Below, in pieces: positions 3,101-49,212 of a stretch of DNA of 64,000 nt. This DNA comes from an uncultured Spirochaetaceae bacterium. GTDB lineage: Bacteria > Myxococcota_A > UBA9160 > UBA4427. The DNA is taken from contig CAYYSY010000105.1 in assembly GCA_964474355.1 (NCBI GenBank), forward strand, positions 7,649-71,648, in the 5' to 3' direction. Under the pieces are notes generated by a model. The model saw only the letters and a program-made list of their open reading frames with translations, had not been told where the DNA came from and did no database searches. Every line of letters begins with the position of its first letter. Position 1 is the first letter of the stretch. The position numbers and the translations under genes were made by a program.

Positions 3101-3168
3101 GGCTCAGCCCATGCTCACCGGGTTGCTCAGCCGGTTGCTCAGCCGTCTACTCAGCCGTCTACTCAGCC
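3101..3168. repeat. Degenerate 12-bp tandem repeat containing the stop codon of the OmpA/MotB gene
   Basis: ggttgctcagcc x2 (3121-3144) then gtctactcagcc x2 (3145-3168); looser copies at 3101 and 3111; minus-strand TGA at 3163, 3151, 3139, 3127, 3115 and 3104. Confidence 0.85.
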
Positions 3169-3819
3169 CCGCGGCACGACCCGCAGGATGATCTCGGTCC
3201 GTCTGTTCCGCGCGCGATTCTCGGGCGAGTCATTGGGCACGAGCGGCGCGAAGGGCCCGCGCGAGACGGCGCGCAGCCGCGCCGAATCGACACCGTGCTC
3301 TGACAGCACGCGCACGACCAGCGCCGCCCGGGCGCCCGCCAGCTCCCAGTTCGTCGGGTAGCGGGCCCTGAGACTCGGACCGACTCGCACGTCGTCGGTG
3401 TGGCCCTCGACGAAGATGATCGCGTCTTCGTCCGCGATCTGCTTGGCCACCCGCGCGATCAGGGCCGTTCCATCATCGCCGAGTGAGGTGGCGCCCGACG
3501 AGAAGAGCAGCTCGTCCGACACGCCGAGCCGGATGCCGTCGACGACCTCCTGGATCGTGATCTGGCCAGCCTCGACCTCCGACTGAAGCTCGCGCACGAG
3601 CTCGCCATAGGTGTTCTTCATCTTCTCGTTCTCGGCGCGCACGCTGTCGAGCTCGTTCGTGAGAACGGCCTGCTCCTCGGCGAGCGCGTCGCGCTCTACG
3701 GCCAAGGCATCGCGCTCCTTCTCGAGCTCTCCGTACTTGCCCGACGAGACGCAGCCAGTCAGGGCGAGCACGCCCGCGATTGCGGCGATGAGAGATGTAG
3801 TGATGTTCCGAGCGTTCAT
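3163..3819 (-). CDS. OmpA/MotB-family peptidoglycan-binding lipoprotein with coiled-coil linker
   Basis: Lipobox LTGC, heptad-like EKERDALAVERDALAEEQ segment, VEGHTDD, NWELAGARA, RNRRTEI. Confidence 0.85.
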   Translation of the reverse strand: MNARNITTSLIAAIAGVLALTGCVSSGKYGELEKERDALAVERDALAEEQAVLTNELDSVRAENEKMKNTYGELVRELQSEVEAGQITIQEVVDGIRLGVSDELLFSSGATSLGDDGTALIARVAKQIADEDAIIFVEGHTDDVRVGPSLRARYPTNWELAGARAALVVRVLSEHGVDSARLRAVSRGPFAPLVPNDSPENRARNRRTEIILRVVPRG

Positions 3820-4089
3820 GAGGACCTCCTGATCGATGCGACTTCGCGGTCACCCGTAGGCGCCGCGCCAACGGGGACGATGCCAGCCGATGGCCATAAC
3901 GCAATGCCCATCCTGCGGTGCAACGACGAGAGGCGCCTTCGGGTGGCTGACACGCGCCGAGTGTCGGGTGGATCGGCATCTGCCCCTGTGACGGCGGCCA
4001 CCACCTTCTCGAGTGAGGGAATTTTGCGGCGGTGAGCCGCCCCGGGGTCGCGGCCCCCCGCGCTAGACTCGCCTGCCTCCGGAGGCCCC

Positions 4090-5295: not shown

Positions 5296-5313
5296 AGGCC
5301 CGCCCGGGCTCTC

Positions 5314-6198: not shown

Positions 6199-6252
6199 CG
6201 TGTCCTGCCTCCCGTCGAGTCCCCGGCCCTCCGCGACCGAGACGAGCCGTCA

Positions 6253-7044
6253 TCAGCGGCCGGTGTAGCGCGGCGGCCGCTTCTCCATGAACGATCGGAC
6301 GCCCTCGACGAAGTCCTCGGAGCGCTGAGCCAGCAGGAACTGGTCGCGATCGAGGGCCGAGACCGCCTGATTGAGCGCCTTCGCGGCGACGTCGACACCC
6401 GCCTTGCACATGCGGAGCTGCACGGGCGGGAGCGACGCCGCACGATCGGCGAAGGCGCGCGCCACCTCGAGCGCGTGGCCCGACTCGGCCACGGCGTCGG
6501 CGAGCCCCCAGCCCTCGGCCGTCGCCGCGTCGATCTTCTCGGCAAGCGCGACGACCCGCTTCGTGCGCGAGGGACCGATCAGGTTCACGAAGCGCGGGAT
6601 CGATCCCCAGCTCATGTTCATGCCCCGCTCGATCTCGGGCACGTAGAGCCGCGCGTCCTGCGCCATCACCCGCAGATCGCAGCTCACGGCGAGCGCCGCG
6701 CCACCGCCCACGCACCAGCCTTCGATCGCGACGATGGTCATCGGCTCGATGGCCTCCCACGCATTGCAGAGCCGCGGCCCCCGGCTCTGCAGCATGCGCT
6801 GCGCGGCGAGGCCCGACTCGAGCAGATCGGCGTTGCTTCGATCGCGCAGGTCGAAGCCGAGCGAGAAGACCGAGTCGGTGCCTGTCAGCACGACGGCGCT
6901 CGTCTCGACGTCGTCCTCGAAGCTGCGAGCGACGTCGGTCAGCTCGCGCATGAGCGCGTCGGAGAGTGCGTTCACGCCATCGCCACGATCGATGCGCACG
7001 GTGACGACGCGACCCTCGCGCTCGACGGTCACTGATTCGGACAT
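6253..7044 (-). CDS. Enoyl-CoA hydratase/isomerase family protein
   Basis: FSLGFDL, IVAIEGWCVGGGAALAVSCDLR, FMEKRPPRYTGR. Confidence 0.9.
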   Translation of the reverse strand: MSESVTVEREGRVVTVRIDRGDGVNALSDALMRELTDVARSFEDDVETSAVVLTGTDSVFSLGFDLRDRSNADLLESGLAAQRMLQSRGPRLCNAWEAIEPMTIVAIEGWCVGGGAALAVSCDLRVMAQDARLYVPEIERGMNMSWGSIPRFVNLIGPSRTKRVVALAEKIDAATAEGWGLADAVAESGHALEVARAFADRAASLPPVQLRMCKAGVDVAAKALNQAVSALDRDQFLLAQRSEDFVEGVRSFMEKRPPRYTGR

Positions 7045-7058
7045 GGGACTCCTTCCGA

Positions 7059-7223
7059 GTGGGTGCGCGGCGTCAATCGGCCGCGAGCGATCTCGCGAGA
7101 TGGATGCGCGGCGTCCAGTCGGCCACGATCGGTCTCACGAGGTGGGTGCGCGGCGTCAGTCGGCCGCGAGCGATCTCACGAGGTGGGTGCGCGGCATCAG
7201 TCGGCCGCGAGCGATCTCACGAG
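7059..7223. repeat. Four tandem 41/42-bp repeats, each containing the last 27 nt of the NSS transporter gene
   Basis: Units 7059-7099, 7100-7141, 7142-7182, 7183-7223; consensus gtgggtgcgcggcgtcagtcggccgcgagcgatctcacgag; the reverse complement of the last 27 nt encodes LVRSLAAD-stop. Confidence 0.95.
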
Positions 7224-8555
7224 ATCGAGCGTATCGCCGATCGTGAACCACAGGATCGCCACGAGGATCAGCGGCACGACGAAGCGCAGCAGCACCTGCC
7301 AGCCGAAGAGCAGGGGTCCGAGCTTCGAGCCAGCCTCGGCCTCGTCGAGCGCACCCGGCATGAACCAGCCGACGAAGACCGAGAGCAGCAGTCCGCCGAG
7401 GATCAGCAGCAGGTTCCCACCGATCTGGTCCATCAGGCCGAGCACGTCGAGGGAGAACGCAGCGGGCACGCCGAGCAGGGCGATGGCCGAGCCACAGACG
7501 AGCGCGGCGGTGCGCCGGCTGGTGCCGAACGAGTCGATCGTGGACGCGACGACGACCTCGAGCAGCGAGATCGCGCTCGTGAGGCCACCGACGAGCAGCG
7601 CGAAGAAGAAGGCGGTGCCGACGAAGGTGCCGACGCCGCCCATCTCGGCGAACGCCTTGGGCAGCGTGATGAAGAGCGCGCCCAGCGTGCTCGCGCCGAC
7701 GTCCTCTTGCAGACCGAGCGCGAAGAGCAGCGGAAAGACCACGAGCCCGGCGATGAACGCCACGCCGAAGTCCGAGATCGCGATCGTGATCGACTCGGCT
7801 GGCAGGTCGGTGTTGCGGTCGAGATAGCTCGCGTAGGTGAGGATCGCGCCCATGCCGAGGCTCAGGCTGAAGAAGGCCTGGCCGGCCGCGTCCCGCAGCA
7901 CGTCCCTGTTCCAGATCGCACCGAAGTCGGGCTCGAAGTAGTAGGCATAGCCCTGGCTCGCGCCTGCGAGGGTCGCTGCGTAGAGCGCGAGGCCGATGAC
8001 GATCAGCGCCAGCAGCGGCATGAGCACGATCGACGCGCGCTCGATCCCCGAGCGGATGCCACCCGAGACGACGACCATCGTCACCGCCATGAAGGCGAGG
8101 TGCCAGCCGAGGGCCGGCCAGCCACTCGCGATGTGCTCGAAGTGCCCGCCGGCGTCGGCGGGGAAGCCTGAGACGAGTGACTCGAGCGCGTAGCGGAACG
8201 TCCAGCCCGCGATCACGCTGTAGTAGGCGAGGATCACGAAGCCCGCGAGCACGAAGAGCCCACCGAGCGGACGCCAGGCCGAGCCGCCGTAGTGGGCGAG
8301 GGCCTGCACCGGACTGCGCCCCGCGCCTCGTCCGAGCGTCAGCTCGGCGAGCATCACCGGCAGGCCGACCACCAGGGTCATGACGACGTAGAGCACGACG
8401 AAGGCGGCGCCACCGTTCTCGGCGGCCATGTACGAGAAGCGCCACATGTTGCCGAGCCCGACCGCCGAGCCGACGGCAGCAAGGGTGAAGCCGAGTCGGC
8501 CGGACCAGTGCTCGCGTGAGTTCTCCAATCCCGAATCCCCCTGGAGCGCGAGCAT
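7197..8555 (-). CDS. Sodium-dependent transporter, NSS/SNF family
   Basis: REHWSGRLGFTLAAVGSAVGLGNMWRF, GGAAF, GQAFFSLSLGMG; many hydrophobic segments. Confidence 0.92.
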   Translation of the reverse strand: MLALQGDSGLENSREHWSGRLGFTLAAVGSAVGLGNMWRFSYMAAENGGAAFVVLYVVMTLVVGLPVMLAELTLGRGAGRSPVQALAHYGGSAWRPLGGLFVLAGFVILAYYSVIAGWTFRYALESLVSGFPADAGGHFEHIASGWPALGWHLAFMAVTMVVVSGGIRSGIERASIVLMPLLALIVIGLALYAATLAGASQGYAYYFEPDFGAIWNRDVLRDAAGQAFFSLSLGMGAILTYASYLDRNTDLPAESITIAISDFGVAFIAGLVVFPLLFALGLQEDVGASTLGALFITLPKAFAEMGGVGTFVGTAFFFALLVGGLTSAISLLEVVVASTIDSFGTSRRTAALVCGSAIALLGVPAAFSLDVLGLMDQIGGNLLLILGGLLLSVFVGWFMPGALDEAEAGSKLGPLLFGWQVLLRFVVPLILVAILWFTIGDTLDLVRSLAAD

Positions 8556-8655
8556 ACCCTCCGGATGAAGACGCAGAAACGGTCGTCATCACTTCCACGG
8601 GGCTAGACTCGGGCCTCTCTCCCCCCGGCGAGACGGGCGGACCGAAGGAGCCTCG

Positions 8656-9525: not shown

Positions 9526-9534
9526 CGCGAAGAC

Positions 9535-22948: not shown

Positions 22949-23503
22949 TCAAGCACCCTCGAGCGGCAGCGCCTCCACGAGGTCGAAGAGCCGCGCGCGC
23001 CGGTCGACCGACCAGGTATAGAGCGCGATGCGATCGAGCCGCACCGCGGGCGCGCCGAGATCGACCGCCTCGGCCCAGGCGAGCGCTGCCCTGCGTTGGC
23101 CGGCATCGGCGCGGCGGGCGATGCGCGCCAGGGTCACGTGGGGCAGGGGCGGCCGGCGATCGGGCCGCGCGCCGGCCGTGGTCAGCATCTCGTCGCGCAC
23201 CGCCGAGATGCCGTCGGCGACCGCCTCGGCACCGTCACCGAGCATCACCGAGAGCGCCGAGGGCTTCCTTCGATTGCCGAGGGCACGCAGCCCGGCGAGC
23301 TGCACGTCGAGGGGCCCAGTCGGCCACGTCACGGCGAGGGCGAAGGCCCGCCGAGCGGCGCTCTCTTCGACCGCGCCCAGAAACGCGACGGTGGCGTGCA
23401 GATCGGTGGCCGCGAAGAGCCGCACCTCCGCCGGTGGCGGTGGCAACGCATCGAACCACGCGCCGGCCGCGACGGGCAGGCCCACGAACCAGTTGGGACG
23501 CAT
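22949..23503 (-). CDS. thpR: 2H phosphoesterase; RNA 2',3'-cyclic phosphodiesterase (ThpR/LigT-like)
   Basis: Two HxT motifs (LHATVAFLG, PHVTLAR), ~184 aa. Confidence 0.75.
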   Translation of the reverse strand: MRPNWFVGLPVAAGAWFDALPPPPAEVRLFAATDLHATVAFLGAVEESAARRAFALAVTWPTGPLDVQLAGLRALGNRRKPSALSVMLGDGAEAVADGISAVRDEMLTTAGARPDRRPPLPHVTLARIARRADAGQRRAALAWAEAVDLGAPAVRLDRIALYTWSVDRRARLFDLVEALPLEGA

Positions 23504-23602
23504 CGGGGACACGGCGGGAAGATTGCCACGGTGGGGGCCGACTTTCCGCAGGCCTCGGGCAACGGGGCTGCGCTCGACGCGCGAATCGCTCATGATCGAG
23601 CC

Positions 23603-24352
23603 ATGTCCAGCGAGCCTGCCCCGCCTTCCACCCGCGCCCTCGACTTCGATCTCGACCGCTACGCGGCGGACGGCTTCGCCCTGCTCGGCCGCATCGCCGA
23701 CGACGACGAGGTCGCCGGGCTCCGCGCCGAGGAGGAGCGCTTCCGCCTCGACGTCGGCTACGGCGCGGCCGACAACCAGACCCTGCGCGTGAACGTCCAG
23801 CTCTGTCATCGAAGCCGGCCGATCCGCCGCTTCTGCACCGACGGCAGACACCTCGACGCCGTCACGCGGATCCTCGGCAAGGACGTCTGCCTGCTGCACC
23901 AGCAACTCGTGACGAAGCTGCCCGACGGCGACGACCAGCACAGCGACATCCCCTATCACCAGGACGCCGGCTACGGCCTGCTCGAGCCGCTCGTCGATTG
24001 CACGATCTGGATGCCGCTGGTCGATACCGACGAAGAGAACGGCGGGCTCTGGGTCGTGCCGGGGAGTCATCGGCACGGGCTGCTCGATCACGGCTCGGCG
24101 AAGGTCAACCCGGTGCTGCGCGAGGCGGCGCTCGAGGACGAAGCGGTGTTCGTGCCGCTGGCCGCTGGCTGCGCGGTCGCGTTCACCGGGCTCACCCTGC
24201 ACGGCTCGGGGCCGAACCACTCGGGTAGGCCACGCCCGGCGATGTTCGTGCGCTACGGCCCGCCGGAGCTGATCCTCGACCCCGACGACCCCGATGCCCG
24301 TCGCCTCGCCCTCGAAGACCCGCACACCTGGATGGTCCGCGGCGAGGCCTGA
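23603..24352 (+). CDS. Phytanoyl-CoA dioxygenase (PhyH) family protein
   Basis: YAADGF, PYHQD, IWMPL..TDEENGGLWVVPGSH, TLHGSGPN. Confidence 0.82.
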   Translation: MSSEPAPPSTRALDFDLDRYAADGFALLGRIADDDEVAGLRAEEERFRLDVGYGAADNQTLRVNVQLCHRSRPIRRFCTDGRHLDAVTRILGKDVCLLHQQLVTKLPDGDDQHSDIPYHQDAGYGLLEPLVDCTIWMPLVDTDEENGGLWVVPGSHRHGLLDHGSAKVNPVLREAALEDEAVFVPLAAGCAVAFTGLTLHGSGPNHSGRPRPAMFVRYGPPELILDPDDPDARRLALEDPHTWMVRGEA

Positions 24353-24517
24353 GCCCGCTTCCCGGCCGTCCGCGGTGAACGCCCCCCGGCGGGCCGCGGG
24401 CCGAGCTGGCGCGGCCGAGGTTTCCCCACACCGACGGGTGTTCCACGGGTAGGATGGCAGGACACCTCGCGGCCACCGCAGGCCGCCGCTGCCGCTGATT
24501 CGCTGCTGGAGAAGCCC

Positions 24518-27500: not shown

Positions 27501-29650
27501 AGCAGAGCTTCGACGTCTCGGTGACGAACCCGGTGGCCATCTACCGCGTGAACGCGGGCGGACCCGGGATCGCGGCCATCGACGGCGGCATTCCGTGGGA
27601 GGAGGACACCGCCAGCACGAACTCGGCGTATCTCGCCGATCCGGGCTCGAACGACACGGCTGGCTTCGGCATGACGTCGTACGTGCCCGGGATCGATCTC
27701 GCGACGACCCCCACTGCGATCTTCGACACCGAGCGCTGGGACGGCGGAATCGGGCTGCCGCGCGTGACGTACTCGTTCCCCGTGAGCGCGGGGAGCTACG
27801 AGGTCCGCCTGTACATGGGCAACGGCTGGTCCGGCGCCTCGAGTCCCGGGCAGCGCATCTTCAGCGTCGAGCTCGAAGGCGTCGCGCACCTCGACCTGAC
27901 CGACCTCGACCTGACCGACACGTTCGGCCATCAGGTCGGCGGTCTCGTGACCCACGTGGTCGACGTGAGCGACGGCGCGCTCGACATCGAGTTCTTCCAC
28001 GGCGCAGCCAACAACCCGATGCTGAACGGTATCGAGATCATCGGCAGCGCCGCGCCCGGCGAGACGCCGATCGGGGTCGCTGCCATCGGCACCCAGACCG
28101 ACGACGAGGGCACCACGGTGAATCTCCCGGTGATCGCATCGGGTGGCGACACGGGCACGTTCTCGTATTCGGCGACGGGCCTGCCGAGTGGCGTGCAGAT
28201 CGAGCCCACCACCGGGCTCATCTTCGGCACGATCGACGTCGGAGCCTCGGCCGGCAGTCCCTACGCGGTGCAGGTCACGGTCGACGACAACGACGGCAAC
28301 GCCCTCGACGTCGCCACCGAGGGCTTCACCTGGAACGTGATCGATCCGAACGCCCCGGTGTGGATCGACCTCGCCGAGGACGAGTCGTACACGGGGCGGC
28401 ACGAGTGCTCGTTCGTGCAGGCGGGCAATCGCTTCTATCTCTTCGGCGGGCGCGAGAGCCCGACTCAGCTCGATACCTACGACTTCGCGACCGACACGTG
28501 GACGATCAGCGCAGCGCCGCCGGCCGAGTTCAACCACTTCCAGGCAACGGAGCACGAGGGTCTCGTCTGGGTGATCGGCGCGTTCGAGACGAACACGTTC
28601 CCCACCGAAGATCCCGCCGATCACGTCTTCGTCTACGACCCGGCGAACGACGTCTGGATGCAGGGACCGGAGATCCCGGTGGGCAGGCGCCGCGGCGGCG
28701 CCGGGCTCGCCGTGTACGACGACAAGTTCTACGTCGTCGGCGGTAACACGATCGGGCACGACGGCGGCTACGTGGCCTGGCTCGACGAGTTCGACCCGGT
28801 GACGGGCACGTGGACGCCGCTCGCGGACGCGCCCCATCAGCGCGATCACTTCCATGCCGTCGTGGTCGACGACGCGCTCTACGCCATCGGCGGCCGCCTC
28901 TCGGGCGGCGCCGGCGGCACGTTCGGGCCGCTGATCCCCGAGGTCGACGTCTACGACTTCACGAGCGGCACCTGGTCGACCCTGCCCCCGGCGAGCAACA
29001 TCCCCACACCGCGCGCCGCGAGCGGCATGGCCTTCTTCGATGGTCTCATCATGGTGATGGGCGGCGAAGACACCAGCCAGGCATGGGACGTCGTCGAAGG
29101 CTTCGATCCGCTGACGGGTCTCTGGCAGACGCTGGCGCCCATGAACCACACACGACATGGCACGCAGGCCATCGTGTCGGGCCAGGGGGTCTACATCCTG
29201 GCCGGCTCGCCCAACCAGGGCGGCGGCAGCCAGAAGAACATGGAGGTCTACGACGCCGACGCGCCGACCGGCATCGCGAGCGCGGCCGGCATCCTCTCGG
29301 CGCCCGTCGAGGCCACGGCCACGCCCGAAATGGCGGCGGCGATCGTGCTCGATCACGCCGGCGGCAACGAGGGCGTCGCGATCACCGACGTCGCGCTGAG
29401 CGGTGCGGATGCGGCCGACTTCCAGATCACCGCCGGCGCCGGGTTCGGTGTCGTCGGCGTCGGCGGGAGCCGCACCGTCGAGGTCGCATACGCGGGCTCG
29501 GCGAGCTCCGCTGCGGCATCGCTCGATGTCACGCACAGCGGGGGCAGCGTGACGAGCGTGCAGCTCGTGCCCGAGCCCGGTGCCGCGCCAGGCTTCGCGG
29601 CGGGGATCGTCCTGCTGGCTACGCTCGCACGGAGGCGGCACGCGCTCTGA
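24518..29650 (+). CDS. Large secreted multidomain PEP-CTERM protein (beta-propeller, Asp-rich Ca-binding repeats, lectin/Ig-like, malectin-like, He_PIG-like, Kelch repeats)
   Basis: Signal peptide (start TTG 24518 or ATG 24569); SLAFGPDGRLYV; DDDSDGYTNEDE and DDDADGILDAND; YRVNAGG..FDTERW; YSATGLPSGVQI; Kelch GG..Y..W repeats; terminal VPEP-TM-RRRH. Confidence 0.85.
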   Translation: MPPPHQAPRAPLCLVRFMLAFCLVLATPFTEARAQSFGASNLDFSTVASISNGTSLAFGPDGRLYVIQLDGTIDVLSIVRNGVDDYEVIAAEELSVVKNIPNHDDDGTADISTTREATGIAVAGTATNPVIYATSSDSRIGGPSGDKDLDTNSGVITRIAWVGTDLNDPNGDWQVVDLVRGLPRSEENHASNGLELVTVGGDDYLIVAQGGHTNAGSPSTNFAWTTEYALSAAVLAVNLTELEAMPISNDGVRDYVYDLPTVDDPTRANANGITDPNAPGYDGVDVNDPWGGNDGLNQAKVVPGGPVQIFSPGYRNAYDLVVTDGGAVYVTDNGANGGWGGFPDQEGGGSATNDYRVGEPGSNGADPVDGEAQVNNQDHLTLITTDIQTYAFGSFYGGHPAPTRANPIGAGLFARGTHSSDPGDANGNTYTDDWFRTQPYDPNGSGEATSAATALPADWPPVPFGLANPVEGDFRNPGGANPDGAVDAIVTTWGNNTNGIDEYTASNFAGAMQGDLIAGKSGGALHRVQLLPDGSLDTLTQNWVSNLGGNPLGITANGDDDPFPGTIWVATFNADIVVLEPQDFVICIPPTDPAYDPLGDDDSDGYTNEDEEQNGTDACNGGSQPNDFDKAAGAPFVSDLNDEDDDADGILDANDPIQIGDPLDAGSDAFALPVVNELFSDNALLGGYLGLGFPGLINNGAPNPNWLDWIDVPGDGPNPNDVLGGAVGAMTMQMTDGTAVGSANDQDKGFQYAALVDLSTGGFRVESRMLNFGSGEQLYPFVGSAQLGIQMGDGTQSNFMQLVVTHAGVEFMQELFDVPDTPQAASIAVGERPVTSMGLRLDVDSATGDVEASYSIDDGPFATIGTLTASGAVLQAIQQASDPIHVGLIGTSNVPGDEVEGTWDYLNVIGRKPTVEAPIEDIEVDLGATSQDVDLAAHFDDDDGDGNLTYQVMSNSNVSFGLAIVGGTLTITFPAALATTTIVVRATDANGLWVEQSFDVSVTNPVAIYRVNAGGPGIAAIDGGIPWEEDTASTNSAYLADPGSNDTAGFGMTSYVPGIDLATTPTAIFDTERWDGGIGLPRVTYSFPVSAGSYEVRLYMGNGWSGASSPGQRIFSVELEGVAHLDLTDLDLTDTFGHQVGGLVTHVVDVSDGALDIEFFHGAANNPMLNGIEIIGSAAPGETPIGVAAIGTQTDDEGTTVNLPVIASGGDTGTFSYSATGLPSGVQIEPTTGLIFGTIDVGASAGSPYAVQVTVDDNDGNALDVATEGFTWNVIDPNAPVWIDLAEDESYTGRHECSFVQAGNRFYLFGGRESPTQLDTYDFATDTWTISAAPPAEFNHFQATEHEGLVWVIGAFETNTFPTEDPADHVFVYDPANDVWMQGPEIPVGRRRGGAGLAVYDDKFYVVGGNTIGHDGGYVAWLDEFDPVTGTWTPLADAPHQRDHFHAVVVDDALYAIGGRLSGGAGGTFGPLIPEVDVYDFTSGTWSTLPPASNIPTPRAASGMAFFDGLIMVMGGEDTSQAWDVVEGFDPLTGLWQTLAPMNHTRHGTQAIVSGQGVYILAGSPNQGGGSQKNMEVYDADAPTGIASAAGILSAPVEATATPEMAAAIVLDHAGGNEGVAITDVALSGADAADFQITAGAGFGVVGVGGSRTVEVAYAGSASSAAASLDVTHSGGSVTSVQLVPEPGAAPGFAAGIVLLATLARRRHAL

Positions 29651-29720
29651 TCACACGGCCGGCGCCCGTTGGAAGGAGCGCGCCCATGACCGTCGTCGCC
29701 ACGAACCAGGAGCACAGCCG

Positions 29721-30452
29721 ATGATCGAAACCCAGAGCGACCCCTCCGGCAGCGTGATCGAGTTTCGCTTGACCGGCCAGGTTGCCGGTCGTGACTACGA
29801 CGAGGTGCTGATCCCCGCCCTCGAGACGGCGATCGAGAAGCACTCCAAGCTGCGGCTGCTCTTCCTCTTCGACACCGACTTCGAGCACTTCGACCTCGAG
29901 GCGGCATGGGACGACGCGAAGATCGGCCTCCGCCACTGGAACGTGTTCGAGCGCGTCGCCGTGGTCTCCGACGTCGGCTGGGTGCGGCAGTCGATCCGCG
30001 CCGCGGGCTTCATGGTGAGCTGTCCGGTTCAGCTCTTCGACGTCGATCAGGCCGAGGCCGCGCGCCGCTGGCTGCGCGAGTCGCTGGGCAGCATCCACCT
30101 CGACTTCGATGACGACGCCCGCATGCTGACCGTCACCCTGCTCGGCAAGCTCGAACCGAGCGCGTACGACGGTGTCTCGGACGAGATCGACGGCTTCATG
30201 GCGCCGCACGACGACATCCGCCTGCTGCTCGATCTGCGAGAGTTCGACGGCTGGCAGGGGCTCGGCGCACTCGGCGAGCACCTGACCCTCGTGCGCGACC
30301 ACCGCCACATCCCGAAGCGGGTCGCCCTCGTCGGGCACGCCGCCTGGCAGAAGCTCGCGGTGCGCGTGATCTCGCGCTTCGTGCACGCGGATGGGAAGTT
30401 CTTCGACGGCGACATCGAAGCCGCAAGAGCCTGGCTCACGCGCGAGGCCTGA
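29721..30452 (+). CDS. Tandem SpoIIAA-like (STAS/SEC14) domain protein
   Basis: Two repeats of G....DY..RLL..DF.G/H..AWDD..H....ERVAVV. Confidence 0.8.
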   Translation: MIETQSDPSGSVIEFRLTGQVAGRDYDEVLIPALETAIEKHSKLRLLFLFDTDFEHFDLEAAWDDAKIGLRHWNVFERVAVVSDVGWVRQSIRAAGFMVSCPVQLFDVDQAEAARRWLRESLGSIHLDFDDDARMLTVTLLGKLEPSAYDGVSDEIDGFMAPHDDIRLLLDLREFDGWQGLGALGEHLTLVRDHRHIPKRVALVGHAAWQKLAVRVISRFVHADGKFFDGDIEAARAWLTREA

Positions 30453-30463: not shown

Positions 30464-30577
30464 TCAGCGCTGCAACACCGTCACCACGCTGACGCCGGGG
30501 CCCGTCACGAGATCGGCCACGCCGACGCGCAATGTCCGGATCAGCGCTGCAACACCGTCACCGCGCTGACGCCGGGG
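30464..30577. repeat. 37-bp direct repeat duplicating the thiolase 3' end, separated by 40 bp
   Basis: 30464-30500 tcagcgctgcaacaccgtcaccacgctgacgccgggg versus 30541-30577 with one mismatch (a/g). Confidence 0.95.
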
Positions 30578-31689
30578 AAGCCGTAGACGTGGGTGAAGCC
30601 GGTCTTCGGATCGCCCGGCACCTGGCGCTCGCCGGCCTCACCGCGCAGCTGGGTGCAGACCTCGTAGACCTGCCGCAGGCCCGACGCGCCGATGGGCTCG
30701 CCGTTCGCGAGCAGGCCGCCATCGGTGTTCACCGGCAGGCGGCCACCGATCTCCGTCTCGCCCGCCGCGATCCAGGCTTCCTGCTCGCCGTCCTTGCAGA
30801 AGCCGCACTCGGCCATGTGCATGATCTCGTGCCCGACCTCGGTGTCCTGCAGCTGGGCGACGTCGACGTCCTCGGGGCCGATGCCGGCCTTCTCGAACGC
30901 GGCCTGGGCCGCGAGGACCGACGGGCTCGGCTTCATGTTCACCGGCGTCGACGGCGAGAGCGTCTCGAACGAGCCGTATTGCCGGGTCTTGAATACCGCC
31001 GACTTGATGTAGATCGGCTTGTCGTTGTAGCGCTTCGCATCCTCGGCGCGACAGAGCACGAGCGCCGCGGCGCCCTCCGACGGCGAGCAGAAGTGGTACT
31101 TGCGAAGCGGATCGCAGACGAAATCGGATTGCGCGATCTCGTCATACGACAGCGCCTTGCGCCGCCACGCCTGCGGGTTGCGCGCACCGTTTGCGAAGGC
31201 CTTCACCGCCACGCGGTTCAGGCAATCCTCCGTGATGCCGTGGTCGTGCATGTAGCGCTTCGTCTTCATCGAGAAGTACTGCGGGTTGAGCGCGAGGCCC
31301 GTCTCGCCGTACCACTGCCCGAGGCCGATCGACTCGAGGGTGTCGCCCACCGAGAACGCACCGCGCGGATGCTTGTCGAGCCCGACGGCGATGGCGAGAT
31401 CGCCGACGCCGGCGGTGATCGCGTTCGCGGCCGAGATCATGAGATTGCCGCCGGTCGCGCAGCCGTTGTAGAGCGTCGTGAACGGGATGCCCGTCAGCCC
31501 GAGCCACTTGTTCATCGTGTCGGGCTGCAACACCTCGAGGCTGCCCGCGTACGCGGTGTCGATGTCCTCCCAGCGCACCCCGGCATCGTTCATCGCCTGG
31601 CGCGCCGCGGCGGCGCCCATCTCGAGGGCCGTGACGCCATCGTGACGCCCGAAGGGGTAGAGCCCGATGCCAACGATTGCGACGTCCAT
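30541..31689 (-). CDS. Thiolase-fold protein, SCP2/SCP-x-like type
   Basis: VAIVGIG, NGCATG, CSPSEGAAALVL, DIDVAQLQD-like DVDVAQLQD, VNTDGGLLANGEPIGASG. Confidence 0.9.
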   Translation of the reverse strand: MDVAIVGIGLYPFGRHDGVTALEMGAAAARQAMNDAGVRWEDIDTAYAGSLEVLQPDTMNKWLGLTGIPFTTLYNGCATGGNLMISAANAITAGVGDLAIAVGLDKHPRGAFSVGDTLESIGLGQWYGETGLALNPQYFSMKTKRYMHDHGITEDCLNRVAVKAFANGARNPQAWRRKALSYDEIAQSDFVCDPLRKYHFCSPSEGAAALVLCRAEDAKRYNDKPIYIKSAVFKTRQYGSFETLSPSTPVNMKPSPSVLAAQAAFEKAGIGPEDVDVAQLQDTEVGHEIMHMAECGFCKDGEQEAWIAAGETEIGGRLPVNTDGGLLANGEPIGASGLRQVYEVCTQLRGEAGERQVPGDPKTGFTHVYGFPGVSAVTVLQR

Positions 31690-41904: not shown

Positions 41905-42240
41905 CGGTCTGCATCCGCCTGGAGAGCGTCGGGTTCCAGCCTGCGAGCGGTCTTCGCGGACCACCTCGTCCGGCTGCATGTGGTGTGGTCCGGGCGTTTG
42001 TGTCAGGGAAGTTCGGGGCGACGCCGGAGGCACGGCCCCGCGGGAGCGCACCTGGATCCACGCGACTCATCCGGCAAGAAAACTTGCAGTGACAGGGGTT
42101 TGCCGCTCCATGACTCTCGCTTCGTGGGACTGCCGGGCCCTCGTCATGCACGCAGGGCGCCGGCGCCGAAGCCCCGCGGAGTCGGCGGGTGCGTCAGCCA
42201 GTCGGCCAGTCGGGTTGAAGGCGAGACCGCGAAGACACGG

Positions 42241-42301
42241 GTGGATCTTCGAGTGGATCGTCGAGTGGATCGTCGAGTGGGTCATCGAGTGAACGATCGA
42301 G
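42241..42301. repeat. Five 12-bp tandem repeats in the intergenic region upstream of the response regulator
   Basis: gtggatcttcga gtggatcgtcga gtggatcgtcga gtgggtcatcga gtgaacgatcga. Confidence 0.9.
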
Positions 42302-42733
42302 CGAGCGAGCAGGGATCGATCAGCCGCGAACGAGTACGGGGGGCATGCCCCGCGACTCACGTCGGCGTCGTTCGGAGTCACCAAGGTGCGAGTGGCTCCG
42401 GACCCCGGATCGGAGCAATCCGGTTCCGAGGAAGGCGGCCATCGGCCGCTGGTGCCGACAGCGCCCCTCCGAGTAAGCCGCCGCAGTCTCGGAGGGGCGC
42501 GCACCCGTCACACACGTCACATGTGTGCGTTGTCCCTCACGCATCCCGTTCGCGAGCACGCCGCTCACCCGTCGGTCATGGGGAGCACCGATCGCCGCGA
42601 AGACCCTCCCTCGATTTCCACTGGGCGCGCATTCCGTTCACGCAACGGCGTGCGACTCTGGCATGATCGAGTGTCGGAAGCTCTCGTAGACATGGCGCCC
42701 CCCACGCCGCCGCGAACCGGAGCGATTCCTTCG

Positions 42734-43303
42734 ATGCGAATCCTCATCGTTGAAGACGACGACGAGCTCCGCGAGGCCATCGCGATCGACGCGCAGGGCT
42801 GGCCCATGCGCCACCGCGGCGGCGAAGGCGAGATCCTCACCGCACCGACTGCCGAAGAGGGCATCGCCCTGCTCGAGCTCGACCCCGAGTTCGTGCTCGT
42901 CGACGTGCGCCTCGGCGAAGACTCGGGCATTCGCGTCGTGAAGGCGGCGAGCCAGCGCCTGCAGCCGCCGAGCTGTCTCGCGATGAGCGGACAGGCGTCA
43001 GCCGAAGAGGCGTTCGAGCTCGCGCGGCTCGGCGTGCGCGGCTACCTCGCCAAGCCCTTCACCCTCGGCGAGCTGCGCGACATCGTCGAGCAGGCGGTCA
43101 ACGCTGCACCGCAGCTCGAGTCGGTGGCCCAGCAGGAGGTCGGCCACACCCCCATCCTCACCGTCCAGGACCGCGTCAAGAAGGCCATGCTCTTGCAGGC
43201 CCTCGAGCTCTGGGACGGCAACTACGTCAAGACCGCGAGCTCCCTCGGCGTGACCCGCCAGGCCGTCCAACAGATGGTCAAGCGCTACGAGATCGAGCGC
43301 TGA
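42734..43303 (+). CDS. Response regulator, receiver domain plus Fis-type HTH (RegA/PrrA-like architecture)
   Basis: ILIVEDD, VLVDVRL (phospho-Asp), MSG, YLAKPF; C-terminal ALELWDGNYVKTASSLGVTRQAV. Confidence 0.9.
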   Translation: MRILIVEDDDELREAIAIDAQGWPMRHRGGEGEILTAPTAEEGIALLELDPEFVLVDVRLGEDSGIRVVKAASQRLQPPSCLAMSGQASAEEAFELARLGVRGYLAKPFTLGELRDIVEQAVNAAPQLESVAQQEVGHTPILTVQDRVKKAMLLQALELWDGNYVKTASSLGVTRQAVQQMVKRYEIER

Positions 43304-43348
43304 AGGGCGAGCACCCCCCAATCGCACCGCATCCAAGGAGATCCGGAC

Positions 43349-44932
43349 ATGCCGAACCCCGCGAGCCAGACCGCTCTCTTCTCCGGTCCCGGGCGCTTCC
43401 CCGCCCTCGCGCTCTATCGATCCCGCGGCTCGCGACCGAAGCACGTTCGCGCGCGTGCAGCGGCGCTTCTCGACGAGATCCAGCAGCTGGGCCTGTCGAC
43501 CGAGCACATCCTGGTGGCTCTCTCGCCTGGCTCGCTGCGCGGACACCCCGACTCGCTGCCCGGCCACGACATCAGGCCGCAGGATCCGGGCAACGGCTTC
43601 GAGTTCGAGTTGGATGCGGCACTCGACGTAGCGGTCATGGTCCAGATTTCGGCGGCGACGGCGGAGGATCGCGTTCATGCGCTGCGCCTGGTGAAGCACG
43701 TACTCGAGGACGGCAACCACCTGCAGATCATCGAGGAGCTGCTCGGAGACGTGCGCACCAGCTACCGCGAGCCCTTCGGCTACCCGGACGGCAGGAAGCC
43801 CAGCGACGCAGCCGACATCCGCGGTGCGGCGCTCATCTCGAGCGGCGACCTGTCCGGCGGAAGCTGGATCTTCTATCAGCGCTTCGTCCACGATCTGGTC
43901 GAGTTCTTCAAGCAGGGTGAGAACGAGCGTCACGCGATCATGGGCATCGACTTCGAGGGCGACACCGTCCCCACCCCGCCGTCGGATCCGGCAACCCAGG
44001 GGCACGTCACGCTGGCGCGGCGTGTGAACCGCGACGCAGCGGGGCGCCCGCAGATCATCCGCCGCGGCTTCCCGTTCCGCGCGGCGAACGGCGAAGAGGG
44101 GCTCGTCTTCATCGGCGTGACGAATGAGCCGCTGAATTTCAAGGTCATCCTTCAGGCGATGTTGGGTGGCGCATCCAGCGCGACCCACGACGCGATGCTC
44201 GCGTTCGTCGACGCCGTGAGCGGGGGGCTCTTCTTCGCGCCTCCCAACGCGGCGTGGCTCGCCAAGGGACAGTCCGTACCGAGTGTCAGCGTCCCGTTGG
44301 ACGTCACGTCGATCGAGCGGCCGGTCGACGAAGCCGTGGTCCTCTACCCGTTTACGCCGAAGGGCCTCGACTACATGGAGCGGATGCGAAACGAGCTGAT
44401 CTTCGGCAACCCGGTCGGCTGGATCGATCCGGTCCCGAACCCCGACGACGAGATCGGCTCGAGCGTGGCGCAGTTCGCGCTGACCAAGAGCGAAGAGATC
44501 CACGAGGCCATTGCCGGCGGGGTCCCTGCCGACCCCCAGGTGCTCCGGGATCTCGAGGGGTGGCTGACCGACTTCGCCAACCTCCCCGCGCACTTGAAGG
44601 ACGAAATCCCGGCTGACGTCGACACCCTCGTCCAGGAGCTGATCATCGCGGCGAACAATGGACCGCTCACGGAGGCCAGCGTGACCGCGGCCGCAGCCAG
44701 CAATCGGCTGCTGAATGCGACGGCGGGTGCGAATCGCGCCATCGCATCGGGCGTCGACACGGTGCCGCCGCCGGTGCGTGACCTCGTGAACGGCACGGCC
44801 CGGGTCGTCGCGGGCACGGTGAACGCCGACCCCGTCATCAAGAACGCGCTCGACACCCTGCGCAACGAGGCGATGGCCGCGTCGGTGAAGGTCAACCAGG
44901 GTCAGGGCTTCTACATTACGCTGAACGTGTGA
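43349..44932 (+). CDS. DyP-type heme peroxidase with ~200 aa C-terminal extension of unknown family
   Basis: EPFGYPDG (GxxDG), GSWIFYQRFVHDL, proximal GHV, distal IIRRGFPF, GLVFIG, GGLFFAP; then non-DyP sequence ending GQGFYITLNV. Confidence 0.85.
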   Translation: MPNPASQTALFSGPGRFPALALYRSRGSRPKHVRARAAALLDEIQQLGLSTEHILVALSPGSLRGHPDSLPGHDIRPQDPGNGFEFELDAALDVAVMVQISAATAEDRVHALRLVKHVLEDGNHLQIIEELLGDVRTSYREPFGYPDGRKPSDAADIRGAALISSGDLSGGSWIFYQRFVHDLVEFFKQGENERHAIMGIDFEGDTVPTPPSDPATQGHVTLARRVNRDAAGRPQIIRRGFPFRAANGEEGLVFIGVTNEPLNFKVILQAMLGGASSATHDAMLAFVDAVSGGLFFAPPNAAWLAKGQSVPSVSVPLDVTSIERPVDEAVVLYPFTPKGLDYMERMRNELIFGNPVGWIDPVPNPDDEIGSSVAQFALTKSEEIHEAIAGGVPADPQVLRDLEGWLTDFANLPAHLKDEIPADVDTLVQELIIAANNGPLTEASVTAAAASNRLLNATAGANRAIASGVDTVPPPVRDLVNGTARVVAGTVNADPVIKNALDTLRNEAMAASVKVNQGQGFYITLNV

Positions 44933-46260
44933 ATCGACGATTTCGCAGCTGGCTCTCGGTTCTCGCCCCCGAGCGCAAGGACGCCAGCGACCCGGGCGCC
45001 TGGGTGGGAACCTTCGCGCTCGGCTCGATCGTCCTCGCGACGGCGAGCTTCGCCCCCGGCGTCTCCGATCTCTTCGAGCTGCCCTTCTGGCCGGCGTTCG
45101 GGATCTTCACCGTGGCGTGTGCCTTCGGCTGGGCGTGTGGCTGGCTCGAGCACGCCGATCGGCTGACGCTCGACCAGTACGGGATCATCGCGCTCGTCGG
45201 AGCGGCGCTCTTCCAGACGTCGACGACCGCGAGCGTCGCCCTCTCCGTACTGCCCGGAGCGGCGATCATGGCCGCGCTGTCGCTGATCGTCGTGTCGTTC
45301 CACGCGTTCCACCACAAGGTCTCGTTCGAGTTCCCGTTCGGCGCAATCCCGACGATCATCGCCGTGATCGTCGGCGTGGCCCTCGACCCGACTCCCGAGA
45401 ACCTCTCGATCTGGGCGGTGCTCGCCCCCGTGATGCTCGGCTTCAGCTTCATCCTCGGCACCCTGGGACTGCGCGGTCACCGCGAGCGGCTCCAACAGCG
45501 CGCGCTCACCGATGCCGTGCACGCCCAGGTCCTGCAGGAGCGCACCCGCGACCGCGATGCCGTTTCGAGCCAGCTGCTCAAGCTGCTCGAACACAACCAC
45601 GACGCGAGCAACGCGCTCTCGAGCGTCATGCTGAAGTCACAGCTCCTCGCAGAGAAGGTCGATGCCGAAGGCGTCGACGACGCACGGCTCGCCGAGCTCA
45701 AGAGCCTGGCCGCATCGGTGACGAGCGGGCTGTCGCGCCTACGAAGCCTGCTCGACGACGCACGAGAGGTCCGGCTCGGAAGCCAGCCCAAGGTGCAAGC
45801 GGTGTCTACGGGGCGCGTTCTCGACGGCATCGTCGGCGAGGTCCGCGTCCGCTACCCGCGAGTGCACGTCGAGGTACAAGCCGATCTCTCGGCGGACGAC
45901 GCCCCGCTCGTCACGCTGGTCGGGGGCTCCTCGAGTCTCGCTCGCATCCTCGAAAACCTGCTGCTGAATGCGTGCCAGGGAGATGGAGTCCGCGGTGCCC
46001 ACGAGGTGCGTGTAGAGGTCCGCCCGTTGCCAGAGGCCGGACGCCTGTCGATCGAGGTGGCCGACGACGGGCCCGGCTTCCCACCAGAGCAGCTCGCCTC
46101 GGAGACCTTTGCCTTCCAGACCTCGAAGCCCGGCGGCCTGGGACTCGGCCTCTACACCGTCTCGAATCTGGTCCGCGCGAGTGGCGGCGAGATCGTCAGG
46201 GAGAACCGCAGCACGGGGGGCGCACGGGTCTCGATCCAGCTGCCGGTGGTCCGGATGTGA
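44929..46260 (+). CDS. Polytopic membrane sensor histidine kinase
   Basis: About six TM segments without a large periplasmic loop; H-box HNHDASNAL, N-box ENLLLNA, G1 DDGPGF, G2 GLGLGL; GTG overlaps the DyP stop. Confidence 0.92.
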   Translation: MNRRFRSWLSVLAPERKDASDPGAWVGTFALGSIVLATASFAPGVSDLFELPFWPAFGIFTVACAFGWACGWLEHADRLTLDQYGIIALVGAALFQTSTTASVALSVLPGAAIMAALSLIVVSFHAFHHKVSFEFPFGAIPTIIAVIVGVALDPTPENLSIWAVLAPVMLGFSFILGTLGLRGHRERLQQRALTDAVHAQVLQERTRDRDAVSSQLLKLLEHNHDASNALSSVMLKSQLLAEKVDAEGVDDARLAELKSLAASVTSGLSRLRSLLDDAREVRLGSQPKVQAVSTGRVLDGIVGEVRVRYPRVHVEVQADLSADDAPLVTLVGGSSSLARILENLLLNACQGDGVRGAHEVRVEVRPLPEAGRLSIEVADDGPGFPPEQLASETFAFQTSKPGGLGLGLYTVSNLVRASGGEIVRENRSTGGARVSIQLPVVRM

Positions 46261-46294
46261 CCCTCCCCACCGAAGGGCGCAGCCAGGTGCGGGC

Positions 46295-47017
46295 TTGATC
46301 TCGGGGCCCGGATGGTACGGCCGGGTGCTCGCGGACGTCGCGCAGCGCCACTACCCGACGGAGACCCGCGTCGACCTGTCTGCGTCGATCCGCTCCATGC
46401 AGACGGGTCTGCTCGACTTCGCCTACGGCCTCTCCGTCGAAGCGGGCGTCCCGCCGGCCATCGCCGAGGCGCGCTGCGTCGCGGTCTTCTACTCGGCCTC
46501 GGCGGTCAACCTCGCCGACGACCTCGCCGACGGGGACTGCGACTACCTCGCCGAGCCCTACCGCTCGGGGCCCGCGACGCAGTACCTGCTCCAGAGCCTC
46601 TTCTTCCAGAAGGTCTGCGAGCTCGGCTTGCCCGTGGAGGTGATCTTCGCCGTGACACGCGACTTCGAGCAGGTCGCAGCCCTGCAGCACGTGGAGCTCG
46701 TGACCGACACCTGGACCTTCGACGTGGCTCGCCGCGTCGCTGAGGGCATCACGGGCCGGCAGATCGCGGCCTATCTCCGAATCTCACTCTTCGGCACGGA
46801 CCTCGCTCGGCACGCAGAGCAGATCGGCGTAGACGTGGGTCTGGCCACCCATGTCGCCCTGGACGCCGAGTCCCGCGATCCGCGGTTCACGAGCCTCGAC
46901 GACACCGACCGCGAGCAGCTCCGACAGCTCGCCCTCGAGGCGATCGGCCGGGCCACTGCTCTCGAATTAGAAGCAATCGTGCCCGTAGCGACACAGGTGC
47001 ACCGAGCCCTCGGCTGA
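46295..47017 (+). CDS. Class I isoprenoid-synthase-fold protein, ComQ-like prenyltransferase candidate
   Basis: NLADDLADGD Asp-rich motif (DDLAD at 46517-46531), GITGRQ where polyprenyl synthases have KT/G motifs, degenerate second motif THVALDAES; start uncertain (TTG 46295, GTG 46325, ATG 46397). Confidence 0.62.
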   Translation: MISGPGWYGRVLADVAQRHYPTETRVDLSASIRSMQTGLLDFAYGLSVEAGVPPAIAEARCVAVFYSASAVNLADDLADGDCDYLAEPYRSGPATQYLLQSLFFQKVCELGLPVEVIFAVTRDFEQVAALQHVELVTDTWTFDVARRVAEGITGRQIAAYLRISLFGTDLARHAEQIGVDVGLATHVALDAESRDPRFTSLDDTDREQLRQLALEAIGRATALELEAIVPVATQVHRALG

Positions 47018-47070
47018 CCGCAGCCGGTGGCGGCACGGATGCGCCGAGCCCTCGATCGACCGCACCGGTG
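46997..47070. repeat. Degenerate 42-bp-period duplication of the 3' end of the ComQ-like gene
   Basis: 46997-47029 gtgcaccgagccctcggctgaccgcagccggtg versus 47039-47070 atgcgccgagccctcgatcgaccgcaccggtg (about 27 of 33 positions match). Confidence 0.7.
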
Positions 47071-49128
47071 CCGATAGACTCACCGCCGATGTCCTCCCCC
47101 CCTCCCCCCGGACGGCTACTGAATCGCGAGCTCTCGTGGCTGGACTTCGACCGCCGCGTGCTCGACCTCGCGTCGGATCTGCGCCGCCCGCTGCTCGAGC
47201 GCCTCAAGTTCATCGCGATCTACGCCCAGAACCTCGACGAGTTCTTCCAGGTGCGCGTCGCCGGTCTGCAGGATCGGCTCGAGGCCGAGCCCACACGCAC
47301 GTCGGCCGACGGCCTCACCCCGGGTGAGCAGCTCGCCGAGATCCAGGCGCGGGTCTCCGCCTTCGCGAGCGAGGCCCAGGCGCTCTTCGAGCACGAGCTC
47401 CGGCCGGCGCTCGCGGTCGAGGGCATCTCGCTCGTCGGCTGGGACGAGCTCGACGCCCGCGAGCGGCGCGAGGCCCAGCGCCGGTTCGACAGCGAGGTCC
47501 ACCCGCTGCTGATCCCGCTCGCAGTCGACTCCGCGCACCCATTCCCGTACCTCTCGGGCCTCTCGCTCTCGGTCGGCGCGGTGGTCGCGCACACGCCCAC
47601 GGGCGAGGAGCGCTTCGCGCGCATCAAGGTGCCTTCATTCGTGAAGCGCTTCTTCGACGTCGGCAATGGTCGCTACGTGCCGATCGAAGAGATGATCCAA
47701 GCGCTCTTCCAACGCTTCTTCCCCGAGGACGAGATCCTCGAAGTCGGCTGCTTCCGCGTGACCCGTGACGCGGACCTCGACGTCGACGACCGAGACACCG
47801 TCGATCTCGCGAGCGAGATCGAGCACGAGCTGCGCCGGCGAAACCGCCAGAGCGATGCAGTGCGGCTGGAGGTCGATCGCAGCGTCGGCCCGCTCATGCG
47901 CTCGTACCTGATGCACGAGCTCGACCTCGATGACGCCGACGTGTACCGGACAGAGGGCATGCTCGACCTCGGCGCGCTCTTCGAGCTCGTGAAGCTCGAC
48001 CGGCCCGAGCTGAAGGATCCGCCCTGGACGCCGCGGCGGATCAGGGCGCTCAATGCCGATCGCCCCGCCGAGTTCTTCCAGACGGTGCGCGAGCGCGACT
48101 TCCTCGTCCATCACCCGTACCAGAGCTTCGAGGGCTCGGTCGAGGAGCTGCTGCGCGCGGCCTCCCAGGATCCCCAGGTCCTGGTGATCATGTCGACCCT
48201 CTACCGCACGGGCGGGCCCGAGAGCGGCATCGTCCAGGCGCTCGAGCAGGCGGCGGCCTTCGGCAAGCAGGTGCTGGTGCTCGTCGAGCTGAAGGCGCGC
48301 TTCGAGGAGGCGGCGAACCTCGAGCGGGCGCGCTCACTCGAGCGAGCGGGTGCGCACGTCGTGTACGGCGTCATGGGGCTCAAGACGCACGCGAAGCTCG
48401 CGCTGGTGATCCGCGCCGAAGAGGATGGACTTCGCCGCTACTGCCACGTCGGTACGGGCAACTACAACCCCGTGACCGCGCGGCTCTACGAGGACATCGG
48501 GCTGCTGACCTCGTCGCCCGAGATCACGCTCGACGCGGCCGAGGTGTTCCAGCGACTGACCAGCGGCAGTGGCGCCCGCGACTACGCGCGCCTGCTCGTG
48601 GCGCCCGAGCGCCTGCGCGACGGCCTGCTGGCGCGCATTCGAGAGCAGACGCACCGGCACGGACGCATCGTGTTCAAGATGAACAGCCTCGCCGATCCGC
48701 CGATCATCGAGGCACTGTATGCCGCGTCGCAGGCCGGGGCGAAGATCGACCTCGTCGTGCGCGGCATCTGCTGCCTGCGGCCCGGCGTGTCGGGACTCTC
48801 CGAGAACATCCGCGTGCGCTCGATCGTCGGCCGCTTCCTGGAGCACTCGCGGATCTTCCGCTTCGGCGATCCGGTCGACGGCGCCGAGCACTGGCTCGGA
48901 TCGGCGGATCTCATGCCGCGCAACCTCGACCTGCGCGTCGAGACACTGGTGCCCGTCGACGATCCGGCCCTGCGCTCGCGCCTCGACCGCGTGCTCGCGG
49001 TCTACCTGCAGCCGGACATCCGGGCGTGGGAGCTCGGCCCCGACGGCCGCTGGAAGCAGAGCGCCGGACGCCTCGACGCCCAGGAAATCTTCATCCGGGC
49101 GATCGAGCGCCACGACGACGCGCGCTGA
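47068..49128 (+). CDS. ppk1: Polyphosphate kinase 1
   Basis: LLNRELSWLDF, NLDEFFQVRV, HPFPYLS, FLVHHPYQSF, ELKARFEE, LKTHAK, HVGTGNYN, GRFLEHSR, SADLMPRNL. Confidence 0.96.
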   Translation: MPIDSPPMSSPPPPGRLLNRELSWLDFDRRVLDLASDLRRPLLERLKFIAIYAQNLDEFFQVRVAGLQDRLEAEPTRTSADGLTPGEQLAEIQARVSAFASEAQALFEHELRPALAVEGISLVGWDELDARERREAQRRFDSEVHPLLIPLAVDSAHPFPYLSGLSLSVGAVVAHTPTGEERFARIKVPSFVKRFFDVGNGRYVPIEEMIQALFQRFFPEDEILEVGCFRVTRDADLDVDDRDTVDLASEIEHELRRRNRQSDAVRLEVDRSVGPLMRSYLMHELDLDDADVYRTEGMLDLGALFELVKLDRPELKDPPWTPRRIRALNADRPAEFFQTVRERDFLVHHPYQSFEGSVEELLRAASQDPQVLVIMSTLYRTGGPESGIVQALEQAAAFGKQVLVLVELKARFEEAANLERARSLERAGAHVVYGVMGLKTHAKLALVIRAEEDGLRRYCHVGTGNYNPVTARLYEDIGLLTSSPEITLDAAEVFQRLTSGSGARDYARLLVAPERLRDGLLARIREQTHRHGRIVFKMNSLADPPIIEALYAASQAGAKIDLVVRGICCLRPGVSGLSENIRVRSIVGRFLEHSRIFRFGDPVDGAEHWLGSADLMPRNLDLRVETLVPVDDPALRSRLDRVLAVYLQPDIRAWELGPDGRWKQSAGRLDAQEIFIRAIERHDDAR

Positions 49129-49212
49129 GCCGATCCGGGCGATCGAGCGCCGCGACGGCGCGCGCTGAGCAGATTCGGGCGATCGAGCGCCACGACGACG
49201 CGCGCTGAGCCG
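49093..49212. repeat. Three tandem 40-bp copies of the ppk1 3' end
   Basis: atccgggcgatcgagcgccacgacgacgcgcgctgagccg at 49093, 49133 (3 substitutions) and 49173 (1 substitution); TGA ends at 49128, 49168, 49208. Confidence 0.95.

Follow-up and report, generated by a model that had tools for sequence, protein, structure and literature searches.

How do five unrelated genes come to end in echoes of themselves? The genes lie in the 64,000-nucleotide window analysed here, which spans positions 7649-71648 of contig C105 in a 5.76-Mb assembly from an uncultured myxobacterium (G000; 458 contigs, 69.4% GC, 84% complete), and each was predicted to have its last codons and stop codon repeated directly downstream. 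We located repeats using Tandem Repeats Finder (TRF), a direct-repeat search and direct reading of the sequence, called genes with a home-made program based on third-position GC content (GC3) and codon usage (4,956 genes, 88% coding, start codons approximate), and checked gene identities in the window with Pfam. The answer we prefer, and to which we give about an even chance of being right, is that the echoes are young, locus-specific minisatellites produced by a genus-specific, slippage-type duplication, with selection on the reading frame picking the copies that survive.

Tandem repeats at five gene ends

A tandem repeat holding the gene's own stop is present at all five gene ends, with periods of 12, 41/42, 77, 42 and 40 bp, each where the original prediction had placed it and each with the stop of a real gene. 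The repeats are as follows.

3101..3168, minus strand: 12-bp array of about 5.5 units, each ending GGCTGA
7059..7223, minus strand: 41/42/41-bp array of four copies, 92% mean column identity
30464-30500 and 30541-30577 (30464..30577), minus strand: thiolase repeat, two 37-nt copies 77 bp apart, 97% identical
46981-47022 and 47023-47064, plus strand: 42-bp unit in two copies, 79% identical
49093..49212, plus strand: 40-bp unit in three copies, 93-98% identical

An OmpA-family gene (3163..3819) has its stop in the first TGA of the 12-bp array (3165-3163). All TGAs of this array are in frame, and it occupies the entire 68-nt spacer up to the stop (3092-3094) of a convergent enoyl-CoA hydratase gene (2324..3094). 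For comparison we used a sister species from the same genus (G001), with a complete single-contig genome (OZ252299.1) that was found by a ppk1-based search and shares 86% protein identity with G000; there the OmpA array is missing, and the spacer, 47 nt long, contains an inverted repeat instead. In the four-copy array, copy 1 (7223-7183) encodes ...LVRSLAAD*, with which an SNF-family transporter gene (7197..8555) ends: its last eight codons and its stop (7199-7197). More TGAs at 7178, 7158, 7137 and 7075 cover all three frames, a GTGA can be seen by eye within each unit, and the array stops 15 nt short of the ATG (7044) of the next gene, an enoyl-CoA hydratase (6253..7044). The end of the same transporter gene in G001 carries a separate 56-bp duplication in two copies. 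At the thiolase gene (30541..31689) the stop (30543-30541) lies in the proximal, second copy, the two 37-nt copies are separated by 40 nt that represent a decayed copy, and the array occupies the convergent spacer as far as the gene at 29721..30452; the end of this gene in G001 shows no duplication.

In the 42-bp repeat, a hypothetical gene (46109/46295..47017) ends within copy 1, which takes in its final 12 codons and its TGA (47015-47017); copy 2, located 4-25 nt ahead of the ppk1 start, has CGA at the position of the stop. It is copy 2 that matches the ppk1 leader of G001, which is without the cassette found upstream in G000, so that the upstream gene has its final 12 codons in the duplicate copy, an unusual polarity. 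The array at the other end of ppk1 (47089..49128) begins with a copy that takes in the final 11 codons of that gene and its TGA (49126-49128), and the echo TGAs at 49166 and 49206, together with the one at 49126, provide one per frame; G001 carries an independent 22-bp duplication (2.3 copies) over the same stop. In four of the five cases the array makes up nearly the whole spacer.

Several details of the original prediction stood up to this inspection. The TGAs in all three frames at the transporter (NSS) and ppk1 arrays are there, as a simple consequence of periods not divisible by 3, and the copies do differ by substitutions, which speaks against simple assembly duplication, as does the presence of arrays of the same class in the complete genome of G001. 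Of the gene names, Pfam upholds OmpA, SNF, thiolase and ppk1, and gives no support to the label 'ComQ-like' that had been attached to the hypothetical gene.

The surroundings of these repeats also differ between the two species. The cassette at 41930-47050, missing from G001 where only 358 nt are found, comprises a response regulator (42734-43303), a DyP-type peroxidase (43349-44932), a histidine kinase (44929-46260) and the hypothetical gene ending at 47017, with the 42-bp repeat at its right edge. Similarly, the region 23500-30452, including a gene for 1,710 amino acids (24518-29650), is matched by nothing at the syntenic position in G001, and the thiolase echo lies at the right edge of this block. 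A further array with a 12/24-bp period (42241-42301; gtggatcgtcga, about 4-5 units) is located upstream of the cassette, away from any called gene end.

Arrays across the genome and its relatives

TRF analysis of the whole assembly gave 2,111 non-overlapping arrays. Among those with a period of at least 28 bp, 74 of 189 covered a stop, against 17.9 expected from random placement; the idea of one shared process at gene ends thus holds genome-wide and has passed the comparison with a positional null that had been proposed as a check. When only high-quality arrays of at least 28 bp were considered (114 arrays), 61 spanned a stop, 5 a start only, 26 were wholly in spacers and 20 were inside genes. 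Densities were calculated as arrays per kb of possible unit positions, with extra copies taken out before positions were counted; those for G001 are from an 800 kb sample.

Stop-spanning units: 0.50-0.54 per kb in G000, 0.40 in G001
Spacer-only units: 0.05-0.13 per kb in G000, 0.03 in G001
Start-only units: 0.04-0.08 per kb in G000, 0.07 in G001

The enrichment at stops is real, about 3-fold relative to the DNA just downstream and 4- to 10-fold relative to non-coding DNA generally. Arrays with the same period mode are also found in spacers, including divergent ones without a stop, and in frame inside genes; convergent gene pairs bear them as well, and in divergent spacers their placement agrees with a uniform expectation. 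The position of the stop within the unit varies, from 4 to 35 nt in.

Three peaks stand out among the periods of high-quality arrays, at 18-23, 33-44 (mode 38) and 76-80 bp, with almost none at 27-32 or 45-70 bp. The clustering at 40-42 bp that was noted in the window therefore reflects a genuine mode, to which the periods 40, 41/42 and 42 belong, and 77 falls in the third peak. Hierarchical doubling (19 to 38 to 77 bp) was considered as an origin of these peaks and rejected, because similarity at half the period was limited to 20 of the 99 units near 38 bp and to 1 of the 10 near 77 bp, which is not significant.

The reading frame acts as a clear sieve, since of the 79 arrays located within genes 78 have a period that is a multiple of three. 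Stop-spanning arrays, in contrast, are uniform modulo 3 (23/18/28), which argues against selected in-frame back-up stops. Among spacer-only arrays periods divisible by three are in excess (29 vs 13 and 12), which suggests that some 'spacers' contain unannotated small open reading frames (ORFs); their recognition would enlarge the stop excess, not shrink it. In later copies, positions matching the stop mismatch at 8.9% and other positions at 11.4% (p = 0.18); the echo stops are neither protected nor purged and decay like neighbouring bases. Contig ends coincide with twelve good arrays where 3 would be expected, an excess indicating that the repeats fragment the assembly.

Arrays of this kind are restricted to the lineage. 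In G001, 11 of 17 good arrays in the 800 kb covered a stop (13.8 per Mb, compared with 10.4 per Mb in G000), whereas among nine other genera of the same family or order, sampled over 1.6 Mb in all (60-400 kb per relative), a stop was covered by 1 of 15 arrays, most of which had periods divisible by three. Unrelated high-GC DNA (565 kb) contained 2 good arrays of any kind. Turnover is evident in the arrays themselves, which differ between G000 and G001: at 428 orthologous gene ends an array was present only in G001 at 15, only in G000 at 12, and in both at 2 with different units, namely ppk1 (40 bp in G000 vs 22 bp in G001) and the transporter (41 vs 56 bp), which represent independent events. 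None of the 428 gene ends had an array inherited from the common ancestor, and with different genes affected in each species this shows that the arrays are young and species-specific. Two shared loci against 0.56 expected do not establish recurrent hotspots at the same genes, the difference being not significant and both loci lying in the ascertained window.

The array-free sister reveals the earlier state of a junction, for instance an ATGA overlap at a place now occupied in G000 by 4 x 38 bp. At syntenic junctions 7 of 22 arrays arose where the sister has a -4 or -1 overlap and where there is now a 70-150 nt spacer. No dependence on ancestral spacer length was found at these junctions; arrays arise at any spacer length, and the proportion of overlaps (32% vs 17%) is not significantly raised. 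In about a third of traceable cases, then, an overlapping gene pair was turned into a separated one, and the spacers between bacterial genes can be made from the genes' own ends.

Duplication, selection and the excess at stops

The explanation that we favour starts from an unusually active duplication in this genus that would copy short local stretches head-to-tail, mostly of about 38 bp and less often of about 20 or 77 bp. The mechanism is most likely replication slippage or template switching, for which Ku would not be needed; no Ku was found in G000 or G001, and Ku-dependent end joining is therefore not supported. Microhomology at the array borders could not be shown, the lengths of partial copies being broadly spread. 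Further slippage or unequal exchange would gain or lose copies, and arrays would in this way expand to two to four. Duplication would not be restricted to gene ends, but selection would purge copies that break reading frames, and the survivors would be those that leave proteins intact: units with the gene's own stop, units in spacers and in-frame units in genes. Where a unit holds the gene's own stop, the protein would end as before with the added copies trailing behind it, and the added stops would be by-products without a selected role. Bacterial intergenic sites are under widespread constraint (10.1101/069708), and constraint on regulatory spacing in spacers could yield a difference of several-fold; we therefore rate selection, rather than targeting by a hotspot linked to termination, as the likelier cause of the stop excess.

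Several observations nevertheless weigh against this explanation. The stop-spanning densities (0.50-0.54 per kb) exceed those of spacer-only (0.05-0.13) and start-only units (0.04-0.08), an excess that the frame sieve alone does not predict. Convergent spacers, which are without promoters, contain 14 arrays that span a stop and a single spacer-only array, when 6.7 of the latter would be expected (p = 0.002), and among arrays whose period is not a multiple of 3, 34 unit starts fall 40 to 1 nt before a stop (160 kb) as against 11 in the first 120 nt after it (157 kb). Microhomology pairs (6-10 nt, at 33-44 nt spacing) and GC are equal in stop-spanning and spacer-only positions, so the supply of substrate does not explain the excess. 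Array-bearing genes end in TGA more often than genes overall (88% vs 72%), and this over-representation persists without ATGA/GTGA overlaps (82% vs 62%, p = 0.002). Within genes, the in-frame arrays favour the 3' end, not the 5' end (8, 6, 7, 8, 6, 6, 2, 3, 18 and 10 per decile), the preferred 38-bp unit and the genus-specific rate have no explanation in a sieve of slippage products, and the gene calls are home-made with approximate start codons. These findings bring into play a serious rival in which duplication itself is stimulated at the ends of translated regions, for example where a replication fork runs into RNA polymerase or ribosome complexes that have paused near stops, so that stop-containing units arise more often. 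A 3- to 10-fold excess over adjacent or other non-coding DNA, replicated in G001, is what stimulation would produce; the equal supply of microhomology and GC, the TGA bias and the 3' lean inside genes are consistent with it, and the narrow unit size of about 38 bp suggests a physical ruler. However, divergent spacers and gene interiors have arrays with these same periods, the position of the stop varies from unit to unit, and neither a hairpin nor a motif marks the site. The mean folding z-score was -0.31 for array units and -0.07 for control gene ends (p = 0.11), and hairpin- or terminator-driven slippage was rejected, since array units fold no better than these controls; a shared motif was likewise dismissed, as the sequence context of array-bearing stops contained none and was not special except for an excess of TGA over TAG. 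In addition, selection on regulatory spacing could give a 3-fold difference, and no candidate factor emerged: MutS, the Pol I 5' nuclease and RNase HI, whose loss was considered as a cause, are present in all relatives searched. We therefore regard stimulation at the ends of translated regions as possible but not probable, and slightly more doubtful in the specific form of a ~38-bp duplication triggered where translation ends in this genus, more at TGA than at TAG, perhaps by a fork encountering a transcription-translation complex stalled at the stop. If the stop excess were mutational rather than selective, it would tie translation or transcription termination to local genome instability, and if termination is the trigger, stops would be mutational hotspots that create new intergenic DNA, with a unit length reflecting the footprint of the blocking complex.

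The arrays could also have been kept because they are useful, as back-up stops in all frames, as spacers separating overlapping or abutting genes, or as new leaders for the gene downstream. The 7 of 22 junctions that changed from overlap to spacer, the near-complete filling of the spacer in four of the five window cases and the TGA bias would all fit such a role, yet no array is common by descent to G000 and G001, echo stops decay neutrally, multiples of three are not preferred among stop-spanning periods, the surplus of overlapping junctions is not significant, and convergent gene pairs are affected too. We consider a useful role unlikely, and the selected back-up stops or termination elements offered in the original prediction find no support in the uniform periods, the decay of the echo stops, the folding scores or the comparison with G001. 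Another of its proposals, scars of elements targeting gene 3' ends, extends to target-site duplications, leftover att sites and off-target CRISPR spacer integration duplicating a repeat-sized target. Periods of 37-38 and 73-77 bp do resemble the lengths of a CRISPR repeat and of a repeat plus spacer, the thiolase locus reads 37 + 40 + 37 nt, and G001 has a solo Cas1. Against this, neither Cas1 (Pfam search and tblastn) nor a CRISPR array was found in G000 (84% complete), and the copies are head-to-tail without a foreign insert, the thiolase 'spacer' being a decayed copy. The units are locus-specific: in an all-against-all BLAST of 148 units, matches were confined to one 8-member family and to duplicates at contig ends, which also removes a single dispersed mobile family as a candidate. 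Arrays are not linked to synteny breaks (3.9% vs 7.8%), and rearrangement scars were rejected on the same grounds. The prediction that no integrase or reverse transcriptase lies in the window was accurate, as reverse transcriptase is absent from the whole G000 assembly and the four tyrosine recombinase matches in G000 are all off the window's contig; those near two arrays are the xerC-hslVU operon and a neighbouring gene, which we take as coincidence. Altogether, scars of elements are already largely refuted for G000 and appear very improbable. An assembly artefact, in which a short-read assembler duplicated sequence at array sites, is scarcely credible: the arrays do disturb assembly, as the twelve at contig ends illustrate, but copies differ by substitutions, the complete single-contig G001 has the same class of array at other genes, and the distribution follows reading-frame rules, unlike an artefact.

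The solo Cas1 gene of G001 (423 aa; C1:3245573-3246844) is on a 4.2-kb island that is absent from the syntenic site in G000. Its nine neighbouring ORFs include no other cas gene according to Pfam, and no CRISPR array is located within 25 kb of it.

Related repeat systems and further observations

As head-to-tail copies of a 10-100 bp unit, detected by TRF and direct-repeat searches, the arrays belong to the generic class of bacterial minisatellites or variable-number tandem repeats (VNTR). The MIRU and MIRU-VNTR loci of mycobacteria are comparable in that tandem units of tens of bases occur at gene boundaries of a high-GC genome; according to PMC12548453, a MIRU often joins the stop of one gene to the start of the next, and copy number varies between lineages. 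That source presents MIRUs as one dispersed, apparently mobile family with a common consensus, in contrast to the local gene-end units without shared sequence described here, which in addition affect convergent gene pairs. The REP/BIME elements of enterobacteria (30-37 bp), as mentioned in PMC2884548, are similar in unit size and in their sites after stops and between convergent genes, but are palindromic and form a dispersed family, whereas the present units show no hairpin excess and are locus-specific.

Microhomology-mediated tandem duplications in fission and budding yeast, rarer in E. coli (PMC8639346), share with our arrays the local head-to-tail copies, a haploid sieve that spares frame-preserving copies in genes, and a preferred spacing (150 nt in fission yeast). 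They are mostly subclonal and reversible, in contrast to the fixed arrays of 2-4 copies seen here, with a mode of about 38 bp and a concentration over stops. Borg tandem repeats (PMC9879509) are likewise numerous, locally made and fast-evolving arrays that arise independently, with units all divisible by three in genes and mostly not in spacers; some Borg arrays start in ORF ends, and they are flanked by partial repeats. Borg repeats are, however, perfect, A-rich and on archaeal extrachromosomal elements, whereas those described here are GC-rich and diverging, with a narrow size mode, on a bacterial chromosome.

Other systems resemble the arrays less. Neo-CRISPR formation by ectopic spacer integration differs in that G000 has no Cas1 and the copies abut without a foreign spacer. 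Tandem back-up stops are a poor match because only the 12-bp array of the five in the window is in frame and none is conserved in G001, and att-site duplication by integrases at gene 3' ends differs in that nothing lies between the copies and no tyrosine recombinase match is on the window's contig. In the literature we found no report of a bacterial chromosome on which more than 100 minisatellites of about 38 bp, each generated locally, are gathered at stop codons. The lineage-specific mutational signature, a unit of about 38 bp in one genus, could point to an unrecognised property of replication or of a nucleoid protein. On a practical level, the arrays break short-read assemblies (12 contig ends) and can mislead the annotation of gene ends and small ORFs.

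Outside the window, G000 contains a small dispersed tandem-repeat family in which a constant 12-mer, GCTGA[AG]GGCTCT, is combined with 7-11 locus-specific nucleotides to give units of 19-23 nt (for example C206:3832-3972, C172:25269-25330, C355:4463-4540 and C38:5719-5830). The motif has 51 matches at 22 loci, 13 of them tandem, and often begins exactly at a gene's TGA; it is on the opposite strand at hslV-hslU, and in G001 it is near chance level. The family resembles the cyanobacterial 'small dispersed repeats' mentioned in PMC2884548, and the 12-bp OmpA array of the window has only the core GCTGAG in common with it. Within the window, ppk1 opens with two C-runs at 47089-47115 (ATGTCCTCCCCCCCTCCCCCC), and G001 retains a similar run (ATGGCCCCTCCCCCCTCCCCC), which indicates that the proline-rich N-terminus of ppk1 has been conserved despite its slippage-prone sequence.

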